Shown here piece after piece: positions 676 to 31,204 of a DNA stretch of 32,000 nucleotides. The translations under genes and the position numbers were made by a program. The DNA comes from a virus (Duplodnaviria; Heunggongvirae; Uroviricota; Caudoviricetes). The stretch's first letter is position 1; each line of letters starts with the position of its first letter. The notes under the pieces are model-generated. The model was not told the origin of the DNA and ran no database searches. It worked only from the letters and a program-made list of their open reading frames with translations. Location of the stretch: IMG/VR virus record IMGVR_UViG_3300046542_000616; one strand, 5' to 3'.

Positions 676-716
676 GAGTATGCTATTAGCATACCATCAT
701 TTGTGCAATTTCGCAA
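676..716 (-). promoter_or_regulatory. early-type promoter, TTGCGA-17-TATGCT-N6-ATACT
   Basis: -35 at 711-716, -10 at 688-693, box 676-695. Predicted +1 near 681. Confidence 0.6.
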
Positions 717-773
717 ATTGAATGGGCAGGAATCAGGGTGCTCAGCACCCCTTTGGATAGCCGAGTGCCCAGC

Positions 774-1502
774 CTACGGCTGAGCGCCTCGAAGGTGGCG
801 ATCACGGCTTTGTTGAAGAAGCTCGCGGACGCTTTCGAGCGCTGCCTTATTGATCAGGCCCGGCACCTTGGCCACTTTTCCAAGCAGTCCTTCGACCTTG
901 TCGTAGTAGCCAAGCAGCTGCTGATCAGCTGTTTCGCGTGAAAACGACGTGTCTCGCATGCATAGGCTTTCTCGCAGCGTCTCACGAGCGGCGTTCAGGA
1001 GCTCCATCATCGCCCTGGCCCAATCATGGTTAAGAATCTCGAAAGGGGCCGTGGCAATCAGTCCGTCGTCGAGCTCAAAAAGGCCGAAGTGGATTCTCAG
1101 TGAGTCAACGTGAAGGGTGTCATCCATTATGTTGTGCTTGGCATACAAATCAATGTCTTCAGCCATGAGGGTACGGATGGCGCGCAAGCGCTTTTTCCGG
1201 GCTTGCTTAAACGGTTCGAAGCCGGCCAGGAACTTATCGATCTTGGCGTCAAGCGCAGAGGTGGGAACTGAAGGCCTGTCGAGATCAGCAAAGTACATTT
1301 CGGTGATCGGGGTTTCTGGGTAGCGCGAGCCCAACGTTCCATCAGGTTTCCAGGAATACCCATTCCCTCCCACGAAAAATACGTAGCTCAACACGGAAAG
1401 CCGGCTTCCAAACACGCCAGGGCTCTCAAGGAGCCTGTTTTTTACAAGCTGATCAACAGCGTTGAGTTCTACCGTTTCGGTGCCGGACATTCTGGACTCC
1501 AT
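774..1502 (-). CDS. hypothetical protein (242 aa)
   Basis: Longest ORF locally. Hairpin GGGTGC-N3-GCACCC at 736-750 lies downstream of the stop. Confidence 0.75.
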   Translation of the reverse strand: MESRMSGTETVELNAVDQLVKNRLLESPGVFGSRLSVLSYVFFVGGNGYSWKPDGTLGSRYPETPITEMYFADLDRPSVPTSALDAKIDKFLAGFEPFKQARKKRLRAIRTLMAEDIDLYAKHNIMDDTLHVDSLRIHFGLFELDDGLIATAPFEILNHDWARAMMELLNAARETLRESLCMRDTSFSRETADQQLLGYYDKVEGLLGKVAKVPGLINKAALESVRELLQQSRDRHLRGAQP

Positions 1503-1505
1503 GAC

Positions 1506-1685
1506 TTAAAGTGGCTTTGGCTGCCGGTCAGGGCAGTTCGACAGCAGCGGAAGACGGCCTTCGGACTTGGCTGTCTCGTATTCTTTGAACATGTCGCGAG
1601 ACCAGGCACTGATCGGCGAGCCGAAGTCGACGCATTGGCTCCAGCGGTTGGCCTGGGCAATCCAGAAGCTGTATGGGGTGGACAT
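1506..1685 (-). CDS. hypothetical small protein (59 aa)
   Basis: Internal ATG of track ORF 1506-1847. The minus strand reads AAGGAGACC-TGA-C-ATG, so the SD and the upstream stop sit immediately before the start. Confidence 0.55.
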   Translation of the reverse strand: MSTPYSFWIAQANRWSQCVDFGSPISAWSRDMFKEYETAKSEGRLPLLSNCPDRQPKPL

Positions 1686-1686
1686 G

Positions 1687-2034
1687 TCAGGTCTCCTTGC
1701 CGTCTGGGTAAAGCATGCCTTTGAGCGCTTCCAGCTTGGCACCGAGTTTGCCCAAGTGCAGCAGCGTTTCGTCTTTGAAGCCACGCTCAGCGCTGTTGAT
1801 AGCCAGGTCGAGAAGGGACGTGCTTTCAGTTGCCAATGCCAGCGCATCCGAACTGGCGCTACCGAGTTGCGCCAGGGCGATCATGGTGCCTTCTGGCAGT
1901 GCGTCACGCGCCGTGCACACTGCATCTGTCCAGTCCTCGCCCTTGCCTTGTTCGACCACCTGTACGGCACTGAGGTCTATGGTCGAGACAAGGTGATGCA
2001 GGGCGGTCGCTATGGCCGGGGTTATTGGTTTCAA
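1687..2034 (-). CDS. hypothetical protein (115 aa)
   Basis: ATGA start/stop overlap with 2031-2228. Its end is coupled to the start of 1506-1685. Confidence 0.65.
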   Translation of the reverse strand: MKPITPAIATALHHLVSTIDLSAVQVVEQGKGEDWTDAVCTARDALPEGTMIALAQLGSASSDALALATESTSLLDLAINSAERGFKDETLLHLGKLGAKLEALKGMLYPDGKET

Positions 2035-2228
2035 GGCGCGATGTCCTTCGCGGCTGCATTAGCCACTTCGTCGAGACGCTCGCGGCACGTGCCTTTTTGC
2101 TCATCCCACGCGGAACAAGCGTGAAATTCCTGACCCTTCATGGTCAAGGTGGTCATGCTGGAACCGCACTTGCTGCCGCACACGTCGCAGTAGAACACGG
2201 TGACCTGGACGGTCTCAGTCGTTTTCAT
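2031..2228 (-). CDS. small Cys-rich protein (65 aa), possible zinc ribbon
   Basis: CDVCGSKC motif plus two distal Cys. ATGA overlap with the next gene. Confidence 0.6.
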   Translation of the reverse strand: MKTTETVQVTVFYCDVCGSKCGSSMTTLTMKGQEFHACSAWDEQKGTCRERLDEVANAAAKDIAP

Positions 2229-2264
2229 GCCAGCTCCTTAAGCTGAAGATGAGAAGGGCGGGGC

Positions 2265-2549
2265 TTATTCCGCCTCCAGCCACTCTTCATCGGCCACCGG
2301 GTAGCCCAGGATTTCAAGGGCACGGTCGCGATCCAGACTGAAAATCACATCAACCAAACCGCGATCATTGGGCTTGCCCAGCTGGACATCAATCACACCT
2401 TTTTCCAGCAAACCCGCCTTCATGCGATCCGCTTCAGCCTTGTCAGACGCATACCACCACAGTTTGCCAACGTTGATCGGTGCTTGATTGGCCTGTTGGG
2501 TGGAGCTGGTTGCTGCGGATTGTTGGCTCATGAGGCGTTCCTTCATCAC
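2265..2549 (-). CDS. hypothetical protein (94 aa; alternative start 2531)
   Basis: The ATG at 2531 is preceded by GAAGGAA-N6. Promoter box 2595-2613 lies upstream. Confidence 0.65.
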   Translation of the reverse strand: MMKERLMSQQSAATSSTQQANQAPINVGKLWWYASDKAEADRMKAGLLEKGVIDVQLGKPNDRGLVDVIFSLDRDRALEILGYPVADEEWLEAE

Positions 2550-2594
2550 GTATTCGATAACGTAAATAGTAGATTTATTAAAGAAAAAAGTAGA

Positions 2595-2613
2595 GGTATT
2601 CTTTAACTATACT
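2595..2613 (-). promoter_or_regulatory. promoter box AG-TATAGT-N6-ATACC (no clear -35)
   Basis: -10 at 2606-2611 in an AT-rich stretch upstream of 2265-2549. Confidence 0.4.
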
Positions 2614-29791: not shown

Positions 29792-29885
29792 CCTGAAAAA
29801 CCTCTGTTTGTGGGTGTGGGGCCAGTATGGACAGGGGCAAATCATCTCAGCAAGCATCTCATTTAAATCGGTGAAAATTGTTCGG

Positions 29886-29926
29886 TTTACAGCAAAGTCA
29901 ATATAGAGTATGGTTTTGGAATACCC
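29886..29926 (+). promoter_or_regulatory. early-type promoter, TTTACA-17-TATGGT-N6-ATACC (plus strand)
   Basis: -35 at 29886-29891, -10 at 29909-29914. Predicted leader of 24 nt to ATG 29945. Confidence 0.6.
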
Positions 29927-29944
29927 GTAAACAAGGATTGCGAC

Positions 29945-30763
29945 ATGACGATTCCAGGCACACAAACCGGCCTCAAGCTCACCGATGAACAACTGAGTAT
30001 CATCACCCCAGTGGCGGTCGCGGAAGGGTGGGCACTTTTTTGTCATGACCTGGATGAAGACCTCCACCACATCGAGCGGGACGATGAAGCCGGGATGTTT
30101 GACGATGATGAATCAGCCATCGTGTTCATCCAAAGGCGTGCCAGCGAAGGCAGTCAGATTCATGCACTCGCTTTGGCTGCCCACAACAGCTGTCCGGAGT
30201 ACGCCATCAATCCATCGAACCCCGCATTGAGCCAAAACGATCTCGATGCCCAGCACGCAGAAGAATTCCAGCAGTGGGCTGAAGCTGACACCTTGGGCTT
30301 CCTCGTCGATCCAGTGTCGGCTGCAACCACCCGTAAAGGGCGCTTGCCACTGACCGGCGAACAGATGCAGATCATCGACGAAATGGCTCAGCGTGAAGGC
30401 TGGCTGCTCGCTGAGCATTCGGGCGGAAGATTCAATGCCAAGTTCATGATTGACAAGTTCGACGAAGACCCGCGCTTTGGCAGCGACGACGAAGCCTTGG
30501 CCTTTGTTCGCAAACTGGCTGAAGCCGGCAGTGATTATCATCAACTGGCCTTGGCGGCTCATGACAAACTGGCGAGCGAGGTAATCGATAAAACCGTGGT
30601 GAAGGTCACTGTGATACTGGAGATCGACTACCGCCTCAATGGCATTGGCCTGCCGGTGGTTCACAACCTGCTTCGCGAGAATCTGCAGGAACTGATTGGC
30701 AATGAAGGCCTGGTTGAACACCTCGCGTGTGAGACCACAGGCTGGTCGATCAACTTTAAATAA
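29945..30763 (+). CDS. hypothetical acidic protein with tandem ~75-aa repeat (272 aa)
   Basis: Promoter 29886-29926 and AAGGA-N7-ATG. Repeats LKLTDEQLSII...EGWALF...DDESAIVFIQRRASEGSQIHALALAAH and LPLTGEQMQII...EGWLLA...SDDEALAFVRKLAEAGSDYHQLALAAH. Confidence 0.8.
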   Translation: MTIPGTQTGLKLTDEQLSIITPVAVAEGWALFCHDLDEDLHHIERDDEAGMFDDDESAIVFIQRRASEGSQIHALALAAHNSCPEYAINPSNPALSQNDLDAQHAEEFQQWAEADTLGFLVDPVSAATTRKGRLPLTGEQMQIIDEMAQREGWLLAEHSGGRFNAKFMIDKFDEDPRFGSDDEALAFVRKLAEAGSDYHQLALAAHDKLASEVIDKTVVKVTVILEIDYRLNGIGLPVVHNLLRENLQELIGNEGLVEHLACETTGWSINFK

Positions 30764-30767
30764 GCAT

Positions 30768-30803
30768 TAAAAAACCGCCAGGCCTAAGGGCTCTGGCGGT
30801 TTC
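30768..30803. terminator. bidirectional terminator between 29945-30763 (+) and 30831-31043 (-)
   Basis: AACCGCCAG-N11-CTGGCGGTT. The minus-strand version is followed by TTTTTT. Confidence 0.75.
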
Positions 30804-30830
30804 GATGTAAAGCTAGCCGGGGAAGGGCGA

Positions 30831-31043
30831 TCAGGCCGCTTGTTGCACCGCTGGAGCGAACACGCTCATTTCCTTCATGACCCAGGCTGGGCAGTTACGA
30901 CTGTTTTTGAGGCCTGGCAAGGCGCTCCAGGCACGAATGTCACGCTCGGATATGATCTGGATAGATTTCGTGGAGAGAAAATCAGCTACTTTGGCTTGGG
31001 ACAGGCGGGACGCAACAACGAGTTCTTTGAATTCTGTGCACAT
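30831..31043 (-). CDS. small HTH DNA-binding protein, Cro/Xre-like (70 aa)
   Basis: LSQAKVADFLSTKSIQIISERDIRAW is a helix-turn-helix-like segment. Own consensus promoter at 31083-31110. Confidence 0.6.
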   Translation of the reverse strand: MCTEFKELVVASRLSQAKVADFLSTKSIQIISERDIRAWSALPGLKNSRNCPAWVMKEMSVFAPAVQQAA

Positions 31044-31082
31044 GTGAAGATAAACCCTGATTTTTGTTCGGTAAGGCGGCGA

Positions 31083-31110
31083 ATTCTACGGACGCGCTGA
31101 CAATTGTCAA
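31083..31110 (-). promoter_or_regulatory. sigma70-type promoter TTGACA-16-TAGAAT with palindrome TGACAATTGTCA over the -35
   Basis: -35 at 31105-31110, -10 at 31083-31088. Perfect 12-bp palindrome at 31098-31109. Confidence 0.65.
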
Positions 31111-31183
31111 CTAAATAAAGAAACCGTTCATCGACAATTAATCCTTTATTTTCAAGGCTTTCGAGCCTTGATGGTGGCACTAT

Positions 31184-31204
31184 TGGTATCGTTTTGCTAT
31201 ACTG
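31184..31204. promoter_or_regulatory. box with TATACT on plus (31198-31203) and TATAGC-N6-ATACC on minus
   Basis: Lies between divergent genes 30831-31043 (-) and 31243-31821 (+). Orientation not resolvable by eye. Confidence 0.4.

Follow-up and report, generated by a model that had tools for sequence, protein, structure and literature searches.

Promoter cassettes with a putative dyad operator recur in a large phage-like replicon

Results

The 32,000-nucleotide stretch of viral DNA analysed here (the window; IMG/VR record IMGVR_UViG_3300046542_000616, Caudoviricetes) carries many copies of a mirror-symmetric 19-bp box, RGTAT-N9-ATACY, which covers the -10 element and the predicted start site of transcription. 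We propose that each box belongs to a sigma70-type promoter cassette and provides it with a built-in dyad operator for a putative dimeric regulator, probably a repressor, and put the probability of this reading at about 0.55. The repressor role and the 'early' class of the genes are suggested by position and gene content. We likewise infer that host sigma70 polymerase is used, that transcription starts at the A of ATAC and is early, that a binding protein exists and in which direction it regulates.

Number and symmetry of the boxes

The box was far more frequent than expected by chance. In the 32-kb window, 18 exact matches to RGTAT-N9-ATACY were observed against 0.02 expected, and zero exact matches were obtained when the same arms were set at 13 alternative spacings (3-8 or 10-16). 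GGTAT-N9-ATACC with at most one mismatch was found 13 times (0.29 expected). When the box was written as a promoter element, TAnnnT-N6-ATAC, 29 strand-hits were observed against 0.7 expected, and the controls (N5, N7, GTAT and CATA) stayed at the chance level. With near-matches included, the window holds 22 boxes, all of them intergenic. An earlier reading made from the sequence alone (the sequence-only reading) had described the box as recurrent and had listed about 20 copies. All 20 were recovered at their positions, and the total rose to 22 after one copy at 12255-12273 (-) was added and the site at 24137-24166 was split into two. The three copies that it had called ambiguous in orientation are ordinary boxes of the + strand, with TATCCT, TATGTT and TATCGT as -10. 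Five more boxes were found to the left of the window over at least 9 kb (L006/L007), making 27 in total, and rightward of position 31204 zero boxes were found in the next 9.5 kb.

Position counts over these 27 boxes (22 of the window and five of the left flank) indicated mirrored conservation of the two arms. R at -14 (27/27) mirrors Y at +5 (27/27), G at -13 (27/27) mirrors C at +4 (27/27), and T-12, A-11 and the near-invariant T-10 mirror A+3, T+2 and A+1. The box extends from -14 to +5 in every copy and overlaps the core promoter elements, and the base at -1 is not conserved. The 'invariant ATACC' of the sequence-only reading proved to be fixed for ATAC only, position +5 being C in 17/27 boxes and T in 10/27. 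A hand tally of the outermost arm positions (G..C 9, A..T 5, A..C 8 and G..T 2) gave no evident association.

Promoter architecture

Each of the 22 window boxes has a valid TAnnnT -10 in one of the two directions, which is usually the direction of the adjacent gene, and the A at position 2 and the T at position 6 of this hexamer were present in 26 of the 27 boxes. A TTGnnn hexamer lies 16-18 nt upstream in 14 of the 22, reproducing the count of 14 made before. Taking TTGnnn or at least 4/6 matches as a -35, 17/27 boxes have one and the remaining boxes do not; TGn is mostly absent. The spacing from TAnnnT to ATAC is exactly 6 nt, which puts ATAC at the expected +1. After 11 of the 22 boxes comes a predicted leader of 21-32 nt with a Shine-Dalgarno sequence at its end, an example of the short leaders being AUACCGAAUAAGGAG; the earlier description of short leaders holds for these. 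At boxes 8818, 10737, 22353 and 24584, a stem-loop terminator stands directly upstream of the promoter, Shine-Dalgarno sequence and ATG; the arrangement is looser elsewhere. A side observation is that the motif TTTGCAGTAAA(TTGAC) recurs on the - strand just 3' of terminator hairpins, in the intergenic regions 8802-8948, 14129-14203, 15615-15743, 16341-16466 and 17144-17316; the consensus box contains TACTGCAAA, of which TTTGCAGTA is the reverse complement.

The promoter assignment is supported by the -35/-10 geometry, by the position just before a Shine-Dalgarno sequence and start codon, and by a phylogenetic footprint on TTG and TAnnnT, described below. A generic sigma70 scan was too coarse for this purpose, giving 8 matches against 8.2 in shuffled sequence and 15 against 9.5, and recognising just a few boxes. 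ATAC at +1 is lacking in the other sigma70-like promoters of the window; the box is class-specific, since these promoters do without it.

Conservation of the box in relatives

Homologues of the 272-amino-acid (aa) protein encoded downstream of box 29907 were 86, 82, 71, 69 and 51% identical, and four of the homologue loci (L132, L134, L136 and L138) are syntenic with 19945-40763 in the numbering of the window. Nine orthologous promoters (S1-S9) from five genomes, the window's and these four relatives, gave 68 ortholog pairs for footprinting. The fraction of pairs that differ was 0-0.07 at -13 to -10, -8 and -7, 0-0.06 at +1 to +4 and 0.13 at +5. It was 0.10-0.19 for the TTG of the -35 (-34 to -32), 0.19-0.41 for the discriminator (-6 to -1) and 0.25-0.6 for flanks and leaders. 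T-12, A-11 and T-7 were invariant across orthologues. As the sequence-only reading had argued, plain sigma70 recognition is insufficient to account for the ATAC at +1 to +4, where 0-6% of pairs differ against 19-41% in the discriminator and which the box-less promoters lack.

Individual promoters gave the same picture. In S3, S5 and S7 the whole six-base stretch that separates the -10 from ATAC was replaced among relatives while both arms remained unchanged; the spacer of S5 is different in every relative, and the box of S7 is kept in four relatives despite unalignable flanks. The right arm of S8 reads GTACT in L138, the most divergent of the syntenic relatives. In S9 of L132 both arms are kept although TATTCG stands in place of the left -10; a TATACT in the right arm can take over as -10. 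In all five genomes the S4 site (24137-24166) consists of three half-site units repeated every 11 bp, one helical turn. These observations indicate that the arms are under sequence-specific purifying selection, that the central spacer is free and that degeneracy is symmetric.

The box is also retained at greater distance. When metagenome contigs were scanned for the consensus 19-mer, at least 10 boxes, with the same sequence and -35/-10 geometry, were detected on JADGMW010000081.1 (90 kb), a distant relative whose shared proteins are 37-67% identical. In 596 Gb of GTDB bacterial and archaeal genomes the same 19-mer gave five single matches, about chance by a rough estimate, so that neither a host regulon nor a prophage copy is seen at the stringency of the consensus. 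A loose scan of IMG/VR with GGTATACT-N5-CATACC returned at least 120 single matches, mostly chance. Single promoter-like copies were noted among them on unrelated viral contigs (L047 7545-7600, L084 4940-4975, L066 10050-10085, L101 10285-10320 and L022 3380-3410), with good -35 or TGn elements and with a Shine-Dalgarno sequence and ATG downstream. Some of the IMG/VR copies have extended palindrome arms, for example AAAGGGTAT...ATACCCTTT. The box type may be more widespread than the clade of the window.

The operator model and the points against it

In the proposed cassette, the order would often be a terminator hairpin, TTGnnn, a 16-17 nt spacer, TAnnnT, a short leader, the Shine-Dalgarno sequence and ATG, and such cassettes would serve at least 40 kb of small ORFan genes. 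The dyad operator would lie within the core promoter, its left arm sharing TAT with the -10 and its right arm being the predicted +1 to +5; since the left arm belongs to the -10, ATAC has a fixed phase relative to that element. A single dimeric protein, phage- or host-encoded and binding DNA sequence-specifically, would occupy -14 to +5 and, with the -10 and start site occluded in this way, would keep RNA polymerase out or trap it. The whole promoter class would be switched together by coordinated repression, and the outcome might be a shutdown of early transcription in infection, or maintenance repression if the element persists. G at -13, a purine at -14 and a near-invariant T at -10 are not sigma70 requirements.

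Several points weigh against this model. Every box sits on a plausible promoter, and location therefore cannot separate an operator from a selected start sequence. The arms are 14 bp apart centre to centre, and most helix-turn-helix dimers span less than this. The preferred spacer is GCAAAC in both lineages, the window's and that of JADGMW010000081.1, for which a pure two-arm operator gives no reason; the preference suggests extra contacts, a preference of the polymerase or homogenisation of cassettes. G at -13 is also found in three box-less promoters and could partly reflect polymerase preference. Furthermore, searches of all window proteins (about 75, as concatenated polyproteins) against Pfam and PHROGs gave no match to a helix-turn-helix or ribbon-helix-helix domain.

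The sequence covered amounted to about 60 kb, out of at least 317 kb for the replicon, and no repressor gene or lysogeny module was found in it. Three proteins were considered and set aside. A 70-aa protein (30831-31043) beside the last box looks helix-turn-helix-like by eye; its homologues are all lineage-restricted, one being labelled DUF1456/YehS, and a PDB search gave no match. Of the four relatives, only L138 has a counterpart (177 aa) of the 179-aa gene at 25708-26247, which is unlikely to encode a conserved binder, because it is absent from L132, L134 and L136. PDB matches of a 178-aa protein to TAL effectors were attributed to repeat and composition noise, since no single stretch passed.

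Alternative explanations

Of the two readings offered by the sequence-only reading, the operator is the better supported, by mirrored conservation and degeneracy, rigid spacing, retention in a distant lineage and selection at the level of sequence. The other, which we consider rather unlikely, holds that ATAC(C/T) is selected as an initial transcribed sequence or as a 5' tag of the RNA, its mirror relation to the -10 being incidental. It could act by fixing the start site, by helping promoter escape or non-canonical capping, or through a 5'-AUACY end recognised by an RNA-binding protein or nuclease of phage or host. The occurrence of ATAC at the expected +1 in all boxes agrees with this, as do the short stereotyped leaders, the association of all boxes with promoters and the precedent of strong phage promoters with conserved regions besides -35 and -10 (PMC2988021). 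However, a start sequence leaves the invariant G-13 and R-14, the near-invariant T-10 and the mirroring of R-14 by Y+5 unexplained. By a rough estimate, an unrelated 5-nt motif would be the reverse complement of RGTAT about once in 500 cases. The -1 base, which normally takes part in start-site preference, is free here, and the other sigma70-like promoters of the window do without such a sequence.

A related possibility, which we regard as unlikely, is that a phage factor or a modified host polymerase reads the mirror -10/+1 element and that the transcripts share a 5'-AUACY tag for capping, protection, translation or selective decay. If such a 5' grammar were true, one 19-bp element would couple the control of at least 27 transcription units at the transcriptional and the post-transcriptional level, on a replicon that may exceed 1 Mb.

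It is quite unlikely that the boxes reflect only the spread of one terminator-promoter cassette, homogenised by recombination as proposed for the PeSL (promoter-early stem-loop) elements of T4-type phages, with the palindrome as a frozen accident of the founder. The architecture matches PeSL in its stem-loop, sigma70-like promoter, Shine-Dalgarno sequence and ATG flanking ORFans (PMC2839356, PMC4122927), and the recurrence of the GCAAAC spacer in both lineages fits as well. Homogenisation, however, would keep whole blocks, whereas the conservation observed is position-specific, the discriminator and flanks being replaced and the arms invariant. Spread of a cassette is compatible with the operator model and is no substitute for it.

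In lambdoid PR' promoters, a -10-like hexamer in the initially transcribed region re-engages sigma region 2 and pauses the polymerase. The right arm, (N)ATACY, might by analogy be a sigma70-dependent promoter-proximal pause element, with a pause near +12 to +17 for loading of an antiterminator or for timing; we judge this very unlikely. The right arm is ATACT in 10/27 boxes, giving the -10-like CATACT, TATACT or AATACT, and the generic sigma70 scan took it as the -10 at three sites. In 17/27 boxes, however, the last base is C (majority CATACC), so that the T needed by sigma70 at the equivalent of -7 is missing. G-13 and R-14 would again be unexplained, and no Q-like antiterminator was seen in the Pfam and PHROGs searches of the window proteins.

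A last alternative concerns the structure of the dyads. The dyad at 21405-21435 has perfect arms, of 12 bp and not of 11 bp at 21406-21434 as first described, and its folding energy is -16.8 kcal/mol (z = -6.8). The 31-bp palindrome claimed for 24137-24167 is instead an imperfect one at 24137-24166, with 15+15 nt that are 87% complementary. The other box hairpins fold at -0.8 to -6.8 kcal/mol, with z mostly above -2.5, a stem of typically 5-6 bp and a loop of 7-9 nt. The perfect arms at 21405-21435 are broken in L132, L134 and L136, and no compensatory changes in the arms were found among the orthologous promoters compared. The weak hairpins, the loss of extended arms in relatives and the lack of compensatory changes together indicate selection on sequence and not on structure. 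A hairpin or cruciform promoter for a phage polymerase, as for the N4 virion RNA polymerase, or an RNA hairpin processed in read-through transcripts, is therefore extremely unlikely in spite of the inverted repeat and the stable fold at 21405-21435, and the conserved TTG at -34 to -32 points to sigma70-type recognition.

Location of individual boxes

Leader lengths given here were counted with the A of ATAC taken as the predicted +1. On the - strand, the leftmost box, GGTATGCTAATAGCATACT (677-695), has TTGCGA as -35 at 17 nt, a predicted +1 at 681 and a 27-nt leader to gene 334-654. Box AGTATAGTTAAAGAATACC (2595-2613) is without a -35-like hexamer and is followed by a 68-nt leader and gene 2265-2531. 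For GGTATACTCAGCGCATACC (6173-6191) the -35 is TTGCGG at 16 nt, and the leader to gene 5716-6153 is 24 nt long. Box GGTATACTCAAAACATACC (8818-8836), with TTGCCT at 16 nt and an upstream terminator hairpin, gives the 21-nt leader AUACCGAAUAAGGAGG of gene 8421-8801. The consensus box GGTATACTGCAAACATACC (10737-10755) has TTGCTT at 16 nt, an upstream terminator and a 32-nt leader to gene 10383-10709, and AGTACACTGATAGCATACC (11517-11535) has TTGATC at 16 nt and a 53-nt leader to gene 10842-11468. The added box AGTATATTGTAGCTATACT (12255-12273), missing from the first list, precedes the ProQ_C-like gene 11866-12216 with a 43-nt leader. Box GGTATCCTCATCGCATACC (14682-14700), with TTGATC at 17 nt, is separated by a 22-nt leader from gene 14419-14664.

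A degenerate box, AGTAGACTGCCACCACACT (15634-15652), with one mismatch per arm, lies upstream of the DnaJ-domain gene 14994-15614, and AGTATAATTTCCGCATACT (16400-16418) gives a 64-nt leader to a second DnaJ-domain gene, 15744-16340. These adjacent paralogues, both on the - strand and each with its separate box promoter, encode proteins with a DnaJ (J) domain at the N-terminus and a C-terminus that is hydrophobic; the paired proteins may be co-chaperone hijackers.

Further along the - strand, GGTATTCTTTGCACATACC (17843-17861) has TTGACG at 17 nt and a leader of about 66 nt to gene 17593-17781. Box AGTACACTGCAAGCATACC (19003-19021), with TTGCAC at 17 nt and a 26-nt leader to the DUF3268 gene 18415-18981, represents S1 and is kept in L132 and L134. 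Box GGTATACTGCAAATATACC (core 21411-21429) lies inside the perfect 12-bp arms at 21405-21435 and is kept as S2 in four relatives. Box AGTATGCTGAGCGCATACC (22353-22371; ortholog set S3) has TTGTCC at 17 nt, an upstream terminator and a 28-nt leader to gene 21892-22329. At 24137-24166 two boxes, GGTATGTTTGTAGTATACT (24148-24166) and AGTATACTGCAAACACACC (24137-24155), overlap with an offset of 11 bp before a 26-nt leader and gene 23615-24115. Box AGTATACTGCACGGATACT (24584-24602; ortholog set S5), with TTGCAG at 16 nt and an upstream terminator, leads by 28 nt to gene 24195-24560.

Five boxes belong to the + strand. Box AGTATCCTACACGAATACT (6715-6733) is a standard box in a divergent intergenic region, with TTGATA-16-AATACT as an alternative that uses the right arm as -10. 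Box AGTATGTTTGTGCTATACT (25290-25308), with TATGTT as -10, lies in the divergent control region and is kept as S6 in three relatives; a - strand alternative, TTGACA-18-CATACT, uses the same arm as -10. This box adjoins gene 25408-25554 (+), which encodes a very acidic 48-aa protein with a C-terminal CSLDNPECEACQ; the protein is 67% identical in JADGMW010000081.1 and its gene is among the best conserved of the region. Box GGTATACTGAAACCATACC (26682-26700) has TTGATT at 16 nt and a 24-nt leader to gene 26720-27025, and is kept as S7 in four relatives. Box AGTATGGTTTTGGAATACC (29907-29925; ortholog set S8), with TTTACA at 17 nt, gives a 24-nt leader to the 272-aa gene 29945-30763. The last box, GGTATCGTTTTGCTATACT (31185-31203), has TATCGT as -10, or an extended -10, TGC-TATACT, in its right arm, and a 44-nt leader to gene 31243-31821.

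Box-less promoters and a second palindrome

Among the promoters of the window that lack the box, three have a near-consensus -35. One, TTGACA-17-TAGACT (28061-28089, +), precedes the tRNA cluster. The two others, at 28677-28715 (+) and 31110-31075 (-), have the arrangement TTGACx-16-TAGAAT-n-CGCCGCCTT (nCGCCGCC). This GC-rich discriminator, conserved in L134, is reminiscent of stringently controlled rRNA and tRNA promoters. A second palindrome of 17 bp, GTTCYGATWAWCAGAAC, exactly fills the -35/-10 spacer of two box-less promoters. One, with the palindrome at 6812-6828, is TTGCGG-GTTCYGATWAWCAGAAC-TATAGT, the promoter of gene 6870-7073 (+); the other, with the palindrome at 26587-26603, is GTTCYGATWAWCAGAAC-TAGAAT, the promoter of gene 26263-26520 (-). 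The palindrome is kept in the relative L138 and looks like a second operator type.

The window and its replicon

The window has a G+C content of 54% and is tightly packed with small genes, ORFans nearly throughout. Almost all genes run leftward from 334 to about 25200 and rightward past a divergent control region at about 25200-26720. The proteins that are not ORFans, as identified with Pfam and PHROGs, are two with a DnaJ domain, a DUF3268 zinc-finger protein, a DUF6283 protein, a phage ProQ_C-like protein and several PHROGs of unknown function. Within the tRNA cluster (28127-28565), Rfam detected a fourth tRNA at 28370-28473 (+; 104 nt, 47 bits), between the Gly and the second Arg tRNAs and without an ARAGORN call, which may contain an intron or a long variable arm.

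No DNA-level match was found among 50,697 phage records by megablast of 8 kb, and tblastn with the 272-aa protein against phage records gave no match. Distant protein matches to phage records were obtained only via DUF3268, an AAA ATPase and a DUF2201/VWA protein. A search of IMG/VR gave no relative of the window. By exact-protein look-up, the window was located on the JGI contig Ga0495610_0000002 (1,282,131 bp) at about 827-848 kb, and on shorter contigs. The contigs of the relatives measure 317,183, 216,927, 1,131,278 and 46,998 bp. A 69%-identical counterpart locus lies at about 821-842 kb of Ga0495643_0000002 (1,131,278 bp), from a different sample, and on the 317-kb and 217-kb contigs the locus terminates 10-16 kb from the contig end. 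Since 1.28 Mb is about 4 x 317 kb, concatemer assembly may be behind the 1.28-Mb contig; the similar coordinates of the locus in two contigs could also point to a genuine replicon above 1 Mb. The small ORFan genes, tRNAs and PHROG matches give the window a phage-like character, and we take the element, which is uncultivated, to be a large phage-like replicon that measures 317 kb or more. On the 317-kb ENA contig, the relative with 86% identity has a toxin-antitoxin pair, CcdA/CcdB, at L132 19360-19922, where the lineage of the window has other genes, and a SocA/Panacea antitoxin-domain protein is common to this lineage and all relatives. The pair and the SocA/Panacea protein hint at plasmid-like persistence or anti-defence.

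Discussion

If the operator reading is true, one dimeric protein controls at least 27 transcription units over at least 40 kb of a giant phage-like genome, which would be a simple mechanism for the coordinated switching of early genes. As a marker, the box delimits a temporal or regulatory gene class in this clade's uncultivated genomes, and through it promoters and probable start sites can be annotated precisely for dozens of ORFan genes. Its 19 bp are usable as bait for the regulator, and the compact promoter-operator module might be reused in synthetic circuits.

Genome-wide repressor sites are known from temperate phages and plasmid prophages, as in the case of the C1 operators of P1, which are asymmetric, and the conserved inverted repeats of phiC31. 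In the IncP KorA/KorB operators and the LexA SOS boxes, short palindromes (GTTTAGCTAAAC, TTTAGCSGCTAAA and CTGT-N8-ACAG) cover the -10 or start of many promoters, and a dimer represses the whole regulon. The box differs from these in its sequence, RGTAT-N9-ATACY, and the regulators of KorA/KorB and LexA sites are known. To our knowledge, RGTAT-N9-ATACY matches no described operator.

Cluster A mycobacteriophages likewise have many repressor sites per genome, the stoperators (PMC9283540, PMC6550527). These are asymmetric sequences of 13-14 bp, set in one orientation to transcription, at which a monomeric repressor blocks elongation, and they need not sit at promoters (PMC9283540). With P1 C1, phiC31 and stoperator sites, the box shares the occurrence of tens of near-identical sites over many transcription units, many overlapping promoters. 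It differs from stoperators and P1 operators in that it is symmetric and always fused to the -10 and +1.

The early promoters of T4 are strong, are used by the host polymerase and have conserved positions besides -35 and -10, and their rapid shut-off after infection is, according to a review, not explained by AsiA and ModA (PMC2988021). They are built of UP, -35, TGn and -10 elements with no reported dyad over +1, whereas in the window TGn is mostly absent and the dyad is present. In hairpin promoters of the N4 type, a stable 5-7-bp stem with a 3-nt loop is formed and pairing is decisive (PMC4496689); the box differs in its loops of 7-9 nt, weak folding and lack of compensatory changes. No similar motif was retrieved by term search from an ONT-cappable-seq survey that covered six Pseudomonas phages (PMC10914365).

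The setting of the boxes recalls the PeSL cassettes of T4-type phages, in which a terminator stem-loop, a sigma70-like early promoter, a Shine-Dalgarno sequence and a start codon lie between small ORFans in plastic regions (PMC2839356, PMC4122927). Repeated composite units of that architecture, the small-ORFan setting and a large phage genome are common to both. In contrast, PeSLs are not known to us to carry a dyad over the -10 and +1 (PMC2839356, PMC4122927), and they were interpreted as recombination substrates, not as operators. The window also differs from PeSL hosts in having no sequence similarity to T4-type phages among the 50,697 phage records, and is not Tevenvirinae-like. In function, the box most resembles the regulon-wide, promoter-overlapping operators of P1 C1, phiC31, KorA/KorB and LexA, here set in PeSL-like cassettes.

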